Of a stretch of DNA of 64,000 nt, positions 12,880-14,033 are shown in pieces. The stretch is from the NCBI RefSeq assembly GCF_024223415.1, contig NZ_CP100500.1; one strand, written 5' to 3'. The first letter of the stretch is position 1. Every line of letters starts with the position of its first letter. The notes beneath the pieces are model-generated. The model made no database searches and was not told where the DNA came from. It was given only the letters and a program-made list of their open reading frames with translations. This stretch comes from Escherichia coli (lineage in GTDB: Bacteria > Pseudomonadota > Gammaproteobacteria > Enterobacterales > Enterobacteriaceae). A program made the position numbers and the translations under genes.

Positions 12880-12892
12880 AAAAGTCCCTCTA

Positions 12893-12944
12893 CACTGTGT
12901 TTGTATACAGTATTATTTTTAACTGTATGGATAAACAGTGTCAA
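12893..12944 (-). promoter_or_regulatory. SOS promoter of the dinI-like gene with two tandem LexA boxes
   Basis: CTGT-N8-ACAG at 12895-12910 and 12923-12938; minus-strand -35 TTGACA (12939-12944) and an AT-rich -10 overlap the boxes. Confidence 0.7.
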
Positions 12945-13184
12945 GGTTTTCAATTTCGAAGCGGGAGTCAAGGGCTTTGTGTTGCTGAACTTATGCAAAA
13001 TTTTTTTGCATCATAAATCCAACAACACATTCAATAACACATTACTGCATAACCATGAAAATAAATGTATTTTTATTTAATTTCACACATATCACAATTG
13101 ATGCATTTTTTAGTGATTAACAGCGCCATAAGGAAACTCTCAAAACAACACAAACCGGGCGGGCATTATACGCGCATTCTTTAC

Positions 13185-14033
13185 TCAAACCAGTTTTTTC
13201 ACCAGTGCCTCGCTGTGACGAATGCGCTCAGGGGCCAGTTCGAGATCCTGCTGGATTAGCGCAATGAACAGCAAATCTGTAAGCATTCCCTGAGCGTGAC
13301 AAGCGGAGATCGACGCACTATTCGTCGCCTGTTCTTCGGCAATAGTATACAGGCAATGGGATGCTCGTTGTTGCAGAGCATTCGGCGTGAAACCGGTAAT
13401 TGCCAGCACCTTTCCACCCACGCGCAGCATCTCATCCGCCGCGAGATTCAACTCACGTCGTACACCAGTGTAAGAGATGGCTAATAACAGATCGTCCGGT
13501 GAGGATGCCTGTACAGTAGCGAGCAACGCATGCATATCGCGTTCTGCGGCAGCATTGAAACCAATCTTCATCAGTTTCCAGGCAAAGTTTTGCGCTACCA
13601 GACCCGAAGCGCCAATGCCAGTCAAAATAATCCGCCGTGCAGAACGCAACATCACCACGCATTCATGTAATTTCTCTTCACTGTTAACGTTCAGTGTCGC
13701 ATACATGGCAGCCGTGTTTTCTTTTATGAGCTTTTCACCCACCAGTCGCAGCGGATCATCACCGCGAATTTGGTTATGAATGGGGACAGAAGGGGATTCC
13801 GGCTGGCTCGCCAGAGCTTCGCTTAACGCGAGTTTTAAGGCAGGAAAACCTTTATAGCCGAGTTTTTGCGCGAACTTCACGACGCTGGACTGACTGACTC
13901 CGGCTTCGTTGGCCAGTTGCTGAGAGCTTAAATGGCGCGCCGTATCAGGTTGTAGCAGCAGATAATCCGCCAGTTTTTTATCACTCTGGGCAAGCCCCTG
14001 GTAACGCTGACGGATACGAAGTAAGCCGTTCAT
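13185..14033 (-). CDS. yfhH: RpiR/MurR-family transcriptional regulator YfhH (HTH plus SIS domain)
   Basis: Matches remembered K-12 YfhH (MNGLLRIRQRYQGLAQSDKKLADYLL...); ORF frame extends to 14105 but the conserved start is Met at 14033. Confidence 0.85.
   Translation of the reverse strand: MNGLLRIRQRYQGLAQSDKKLADYLLLQPDTARHLSSQQLANEAGVSQSSVVKFAQKLGYKGFPALKLALSEALASQPESPSVPIHNQIRGDDPLRLVGEKLIKENTAAMYATLNVNSEEKLHECVVMLRSARRIILTGIGASGLVAQNFAWKLMKIGFNAAAERDMHALLATVQASSPDDLLLAISYTGVRRELNLAADEMLRVGGKVLAITGFTPNALQQRASHCLYTIAEEQATNSASISACHAQGMLTDLLFIALIQQDLELAPERIRHSEALVKKLV

Follow-up and report, generated by a model that had tools for sequence, protein, structure and literature searches.

The prophage-host junction found in the window (the whole stretch of 64 kb of E. 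coli DNA that was analyzed) is, as judged from sequence comparisons, the attR of a lambda-like prophage, integrated inside the small ferredoxin gene yfhL. Phage DNA stops at position 13081; from the core, at 13082–13099, host E. coli sequence runs unbroken rightwards, into the E. coli yfhH-pgpC-tadA-mltF-purL block. Very probably, 13082–13099 is the attR core of a prophage of about 47 kb, which a phage tyrosine integrase inserted into the 5' end of yfhL, at codons 11–16.

The position of the junction is given by the alignment with unoccupied genomes. In a multiple alignment against K-12-like and near-isogenic empty-site strains, homology breaks sharply at 13082: identity to the empty-site E. 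coli sequences is perfect from this position rightwards, while the sequence on the left is unrelated. When positions 12300–13700 were used as a query, 5,425 of the 5,426 complete E. coli genomes produced a match; ordinary genomes align only from query base 783, corresponding to window position 13082, and their matches extend into annotated yfhL. These alignments bear out the original prediction, made from the sequence alone, where it located the phage/host boundary within 12880–13200. The junction, as it also proposed, is of the attR type and lies beside the 3' end of yfhH, in agreement with both the empty-site genomes and the prophage of E. coli B771, described below. Comparison with an uninterrupted K-12-like site, suggested at that stage as a check, sets the breakpoint at 13081/13082 and the 18-bp core at 13082–13099.

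The core, TTCACACATATCACAATT, is the 18-bp block of identity common to attR, attB and attL, in an alignment including the attR of the window, the attB of NCTC10444 and of a K-12-like strain, and the attL of B771. On the minus, sense strand it coincides exactly with yfhL codons 11–16 (NCDMCE), and falls where the first CxxCxxC motif of the ferredoxin YfhL is encoded, a feature of the OS31-type module discussed below. It occurs only once in the window, even when three mismatches are allowed; no integrase gene is found within the 64 kb. By the lambda convention the tail-side arm is P and the int-side arm is P', so that this junction is correctly called "attR". As previously stated, no tRNA is nearby: ARAGORN detected neither tRNA nor tmRNA genes anywhere in the 64 kb, and Rfam none near the junction. 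The host sRNA and cis elements GlmY (21457–21604), the iscRS stability element (50840–50949) and ryfA (58206–58510) are where they belong on the chromosome, which confirms that the backbone on the right of the prophage is ordinary E. coli.

On the host side of the junction, the beginning of yfhL is still present. The native start codon is kept at 13127–13129, on the minus strand, where the sequence from 13129 reads ATG GCG CTG TTA ATC ACT AAA AAA TGC ATC AAT TGT GAT ATG TGT GAA. By tblastn, residues 1–16 of YfhL are encoded at 13129–13082 (minus strand), with 100% identity; residues 17–86 are absent anywhere in the window. Translation accordingly gives a truncated stub (13073–13129, minus), made of the 16 native codons, two phage-encoded codons and a stop (MALLITKKCINCDMCEIK, followed by the stop). 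Upstream of the stub, the native yfhH-yfhL intergenic region, 55 bp long (13130–13184, minus), can be read directly from the sequence and is identical to that of empty-site strains. Since homology ends in coding sequence, and the rest of YfhL is absent from the window, the prophage lies inside yfhL and not in the yfhH-yfhL interval.

This is at variance with the earlier view of an insertion at, or displacing, the yfhH-yfhL interval. A prophage located in the interval, perhaps with an intergenic att, or one that displaced or deleted yfhL, would explain why no full-length ferredoxin ORF is found to the left of yfhH in the window. However, empty-site strains have the same 55-bp region and the same yfhL codons 1–16, both intact here; it is within the coding sequence, at 13082, that homology is lost, and related lysogens retain the 3' part of yfhL at the other junction. 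The alignment with empty-site genomes refutes this explanation, which keeps practically no credibility. The att site had been expected to be either in a protein gene or intergenic: only the former is correct, the core being made of yfhL codons 11–16. Similarly, the reported lack of a ferredoxin-like ORF is true for residues 17–86, but not for residues 1–16, present as a stub at 13129–13082 on the minus strand.

The other junction of this prophage is expected to the left, beyond the window; from sequence comparison it would resemble that of B771. For this genome, the duplication of the core and the intactness of the prophage are supported by near-identical relatives, the left end being outside the window. 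The whole arrangement at 12300–13700 is present in three complete genomes, of which B771 was examined. Its tail-side arm and core are 100% identical to window 12975–13099. At the other end, 47.4 kb away, the 3' part of yfhL is followed, in this order, by TTCACACATATCACAATT, AATACAGCGTTTAGTAATTAGTAAAGACAT, an arm of about 215 bp and the gene for a 465-aa tyrosine recombinase; the core is present at both ends of the B771 prophage, 47.4 kb apart. A 465-aa tyrosine recombinase is located 215 bp from the core in B771, in O103:H2 12009, in Shimwellia and in six further assemblies. This integrase scores only marginally against Pfam Phage_integrase (29.5 bits, with a cut-off of 27.1), and matches the PHROG 1 integrase with an E value of 1.3e-25; a sequence search against PDB gave no meaningful match, and no NCBIfam model was hit.

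At the B771 attL, the phage side encodes MSLLITKR in frame, where the native gene encodes MALLITKK. A complete YfhL of 86 aa therefore results, carrying two substitutions, A2S and K8R; it is annotated as YfhL by PGAP, and with 135 bits it clears the cut-off of the YfhL equivalog model (86). The same restoration of the yfhL ORF by a substitute 5' end, at the int-side junction, is seen in B771, in O103:H2 12009, in the 30 attL records listed and, as a predicted chimera, in assemblies. The latter was derived by joining the phage N-terminus to the host C-terminus of the E28/Q65 yfhL allele, found in the empty-site relatives of the window: the exact predicted chimeric YfhL is present in public assemblies, where all six of the places shown have it flanked by the 465-aa integrase and shoB-acpS-pdxJ. 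Related lysogens therefore do not lose yfhL: the phage brings a 5' end with which the gene is reconstituted at the other junction. A promoter scan detected no consensus sigma-70 promoter on the yfhL strand of the int-side arm, so that expression of the rebuilt yfhL is deduced only from its intact ORF.

The visible part of the prophage (1–13081) is the right-hand part of a lambda-like element. According to ORFs, Pfam and the B771 annotation, it contains tail genes, a collagen-repeat tail fibre, a YadA-like adhesin, a sigma-70 region-4-like regulator and dinI. The tail-fibre gene, at 7478–9292, features a very long run of collagen-like GxP/GxK triplets, whose internal repeats show up as BLAST self-matches. 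The YadA-like trimeric autotransporter (10322–11731, 469 aa; YadA_anchor, E 1.2e-16) contains, in its translation, internal repeats of 30 residues; it is followed by a 151-aa sigma-70 region-4-like HTH protein (11792–12247). Positions 1–9923 are 98.4% identical to the B771 prophage, and the alignment resumes from 10960. The segment in between, 9923–10960, is unaligned with a prophage otherwise about 98% identical, indicating that the N-terminal region of the adhesin, and the sequence upstream of it, are variable.

Only 13 kb of the prophage can be seen, and this could be taken as an indication that a genuine integrase product has decayed here into a remnant, with the integrase end deleted or rearranged, and the late-gene half and attR left behind; the counts of the two arms, 159 int-side and 154 tail-side, imply unequal ends in a few genomes. 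The 13 kb, on the other hand, carry long intact ORFs, and positions 1–9923 have their close match in the 47.4-kb prophage of B771, which is apparently complete. Decay of this kind is unlikely, and a prophage of about 47 kb, comparable to that of B771, is the preferred reading.

The host side of the junction may be compared with close relatives that lack the prophage. NCTC10444 and O78 strain 3 are 99.92–99.94% identical to window 13082–17860, have an intact yfhL and no prophage. These strains supply the attB of the lineage, and the junction matches it exactly on the host side. Rightwards of the prophage, the first host gene found intact is yfhH, which encodes a MurR/RpiR-family regulator (13185–14033, minus; NCBIfam NF008590, 571 bits; Pfam HTH_6 and SIS; RefSeq annotation of homologues) and ends at 13185 with a TGA stop, exactly where its stop had been placed. 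In the mismatch profile, a sharply bounded segment of 660 bp, at about 13190–13850, diverges by about 15% from almost all E. coli. This patch covers the 3' two-thirds of yfhH and begins about 90 bp from the core; its flanks are typical, nearly identical E. coli sequence. The exact yfhH allele, at 100% identity, occurs in six of the 5,426 complete genomes; of these, NCTC10444 and O78 strain 3 were examined, and neither has a prophage at yfhL. The patch has the look of a segment brought in by recombination; its identity to Kosakonia is 71%. Among the 5,426 complete E. coli genomes, the best full-length match to 12300–13700 is about 95% identical. A host other than E. coli was considered, yfhH being only about 88% identical to E. 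coli, and was rejected because divergence is restricted to about 13190–13850, the remaining host DNA being 97–98% identical to B771 and 99.9% to NCTC10444.

A patch of this sort, with about 15% divergence over 660 bp and about 90 bp from the core, shows that recombination occurred at the locus, and the prophage might have been brought in by homologous recombination of a larger imported segment, through transduction or conjugation, rather than by the integrase in this lineage. Yet relatives free of the prophage have the same patch, at 100% identity, and match the whole right flank at 99.9%. As patch and right flank are both common to the prophage-free relatives, no imported flank is visible on the right side; a junction acquired by import, moreover, would still have originated as an integrase product. 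Import is thus quite improbable as the way of arrival, and integration by the phage integrase is retained.

On the phage side, the sequence adjacent to the core is markedly AT-rich: G+C content is 30.7% at 12880–13081, compared with about 52.5% on either side. The tail-side arm of attP (P arm) extends from about 12941 to 13081, and includes three copies of a candidate arm-type motif, AACACA(W)(W), at 12976–12983 (inverted), 13024–13031 and 13036–13043. Two further copies are found in the int-side arm, for a total of five across both arms. In the reconstructed attP, of 464 bp, these five compare with 0.145 expected, and five were reached in none of 2000 shuffles (0/2000). The motifs occupy conserved positions in the attP of Serratia phage OS31, and by analogy with lambda the repeats in both arms may be regarded as candidate arm-binding sites of the integrase. 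The tail-side arm is conserved in unrelated, myovirus-type prophages inserted at the same site (PEC411, O103:H2 12009 and 606R2). Outside the arm, on the host side, CAACACAAA at 13146–13154, upstream of native yfhL, repeats the 9 letters of the inverted arm motif at 12976–12984; it may be there by chance, or as a trace of the arm-motif family.

The arm also contains the palindrome noticed at the outset in this AT-rich region, located at 12993–13011: two 8-bp arms, ATGCAAAA and TTTTGCAT, at 12993–13000 and 13004–13011, are separated by a 3-nt loop. It forms the centre of a larger, imperfect 18-nt inverted repeat (12978–13029), whose ends are two opposed arm-type motifs. As RNA, 12978–13029 folds to -41.7 kcal/mol, with a z score of -3.1. 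The palindrome might be seen as the functional centre of the region, either as the crossover and core or as a terminator insulating the prophage, and both its conservation in other E. coli prophage types sharing the tail-side arm and its inclusion in the stably folding repeat would favour such a role. Against this, the palindrome lies 71 bp inside phage DNA, and in the alignments attB lacks it and the attP of OS31 does not preserve it; it is for these reasons not the att core. Nor does it have the features of a terminator: its centre is made of A+T only, no T-run follows, and the terminator scan called no intrinsic terminator at 12978–13029. Finally, when the region was simulated with a first-order Markov model, an equally good palindrome turned up in 7% of the runs, so that this one does not, by itself, go beyond chance. 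By scan, alignments and simulation, the palindrome was rejected as a terminator, as the att core and as a statistically significant element; a central function for it is highly improbable. It may be a bending or spacer element, within the arm of an att site centred on 13082–13099.

Further into the prophage, its last gene encodes a dinI-like protein of 82 aa (12631–12879, minus; Pfam DinI, E 2.3e-19; PDB DinI 1ghh, E 3.4e-13). Two matches to the LexA box, CTGT-N8-ACAG, are located upstream of it, at 12895–12910 and 12923–12938, and are the only two in the 64-kb window. Both overlap a promoter-like site for dinI found by the promoter scan, with a -35 TTGACA at 12944–12939 (minus). The segment 12895–12938 is the control region of dinI, and not part of att. 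In myovirus-type prophages with the same att module, a LexA box at the second position (12923–12938) is also found upstream of an unrelated last gene.

At the opposite end of the prophage, the int-side arm has a LexA-box-like element, with the integrase on one side and the substitute 5' end on the other (locus L004, 27027–27046, minus; same position in L012 and L010). In E. coli it reads TACTGTATGTTGATCCAGTG, with one mismatch; it is a canonical CTGT-N8-ACAG in Shimwellia, and weaker in OS31, with a GTGT left half. This element could bring SOS control to int or to the rebuilt yfhL.

On the attR side, TATAAT at 13165–13170 (minus) likely belongs to the native yfhL promoter, now facing into the prophage; the native promoter region points along the same strand as dinI. 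The adhesin gene, beyond dinI, is on the opposite strand. Integration might amount to a reciprocal exchange of promoters: the rebuilt yfhL would be driven from the int-side arm, with its LexA-like element, and the orphaned native promoter would read, through the stub, into the SOS-regulated dinI on the same strand. Such a swap is a speculative and rather unlikely proposal.

The steps that would lead to the observed arrangement may be outlined as follows. The phage tyrosine integrase would bind, as in lambda, the AACACA(W)(W) motifs repeated in both arms, and would recombine within the 18-bp block of identity. At attL, the substitute 5' end carried by the phage (MSLLITKR... for MALLITKK...) would leave a complete, slightly altered yfhL, presumably still functional after integration. 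At attR, the native promoter would be retained, along with an 18-codon stub reading into the prophage.

The att module is not rare, nor confined to one type of prophage. Of 5,426 complete E. coli genomes, 154 have the tail-side arm and 159 the int-side arm, about 3%; each of the 30 records listed for the latter places it under an annotated yfhL. A different, myovirus-type prophage carries the same int and att module in O103:H2 12009, PEC411 and the record '606R2', and its presence on unrelated prophage types shows that it is exchangeable between them. A scan for the substitute 5' end in 100,044 species representatives gave three matches, in Shimwellia, Kosakonia and Photorhabdus. Only in Shimwellia pseudoproteus is there an integrase alongside, 93.5% identical; the fetched loci of Kosakonia pseudosacchari (L013) and Photorhabdus heterorhabditis (L014) contain none. 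In these two the match is to what appears to be a native yfhL that uses the same codons: the 5' ends (L013, 3255–3301; L014, 7410–7456) follow the phage substitute almost base for base, and in Kosakonia the similarity extends upstream of the ATG, to about 20 of 25 bp. This resemblance to apparently native yfhL 5' regions suggests that the phage substitute, including about 25 bp upstream of the ATG, was once captured from an earlier host.

When a phage collection was searched with the reconstructed attP, no free-phage genome with a contiguous attP of the E. coli type was found. The att-region matches to vB_EcoM-606R2 and its relatives were discarded as attP: these sequences are prophage cut-outs retaining yfhH, pgpC and tadA, and represent attR junctions. 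The remaining matches correspond to the dinI region.

For the annotation of this genome, these results fix the exact prophage boundary, at 13081/13082, and the att core, and correct the notion that yfhL is missing or that the att is intergenic. More generally, a widespread module, present in about 3% of the complete E. coli genomes and including published Stx2b sites, targets the codons of a conserved Cys motif and brings its own replacement for the 5' end. Surveys scoring yfhL as disrupted by phages should therefore check the int-side junction. If the promoter swap is true, lysogeny would rewire a conserved ferredoxin to phage/SOS control, while placing an accessory gene of the prophage under a host promoter, and the label "disrupted", used for yfhL in the literature, would need correcting.

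Prophages at yfhL have been described before. The gene is listed among those disrupted by prophage integration by Bobay et al. 2013 (PMC3603311), and Stx2b prophages have been reported at yfhL (PMC10675304, PMC12029490); STEC1590, one of the published strains with Stx2b at yfhL, carries both arms of the att module. The E. coli prophages of these three reports share with the present one the target host gene. They differ in the status assigned to it: in the published cases yfhL is called disrupted, or just an insertion site, whereas here, as seen in relatives, the ORF is rebuilt at attL from a phage 5' end. No stx gene was noticed among the genes of the 13 kb of prophage within the window. As yfhL is a known phage integration site, the finding is correct but ordinary: the junction belongs to an already known, published class, the OS31-type integration. 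It raises no new question, and is a tidy example of a known strategy.

The closest comparison is with Serratia phage vB_SspS_OS31 (MT843276; Int J Mol Sci 2020, PMC7556043), inducible by mitomycin C, whose 23-bp att repeat (TCGCACATGTCGCAGTTGATGCA) is in a 2x[4Fe-4S] ferredoxin gene (PMC7556043). Its induction lends indirect support to the expectation that excision restores attP and attB. The comparison covered the integrase, the att, the arms, the substitute 5' end and the dinI/LexA end. The integrases of OS31 and of the B771 prophage share 76.1% identity. The OS31 att falls on the same codons of a host ferredoxin gene of the yfhL type, covering 9–16, where the core described here covers 11–16. 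The two phages also have in common a phage-borne substitute 5' end (MALLITKRCINCDMCE...) adjoining int, the arm motifs and, at the far end, dinI, with a LexA site annotated at the corresponding place. OS31 differs in the host genus, Serratia, in the length of the repeat, 23 bp as opposed to an 18-bp identity, and in the A+T palindrome, a feature of the E. coli arm which is not conserved.

The attP of lambda consists of a short core and two long, A+T-rich arms with repeated arm-type motifs, and its attB, between gal and bio, is intergenic. The yfhL prophage resembles lambda in this layout of core and arms, and in having int next to one arm and the tail and accessory genes next to the other, with attR at the tail end. 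Unlike in lambda, the core is within coding sequence, the 465-aa integrase has no detectable sequence match to solved integrases, and the arm sites are candidates, proposed from sequence. Integrations that restore the target gene are known for phage 21 and e14, at the 3' end of icd, and for dusA-specific integrases, at the 5' end. Here, judging from the relatives, as in the icd and dusA elements, the element carries the part of the target gene that is replaced, and an intact ORF survives; it is the 5' end that is replaced, as with dusA. Compared with both, the target gene and the integrase lineage are different, and the replaced part is limited to 10 codons and upstream sequence, with the A2S and K8R changes.
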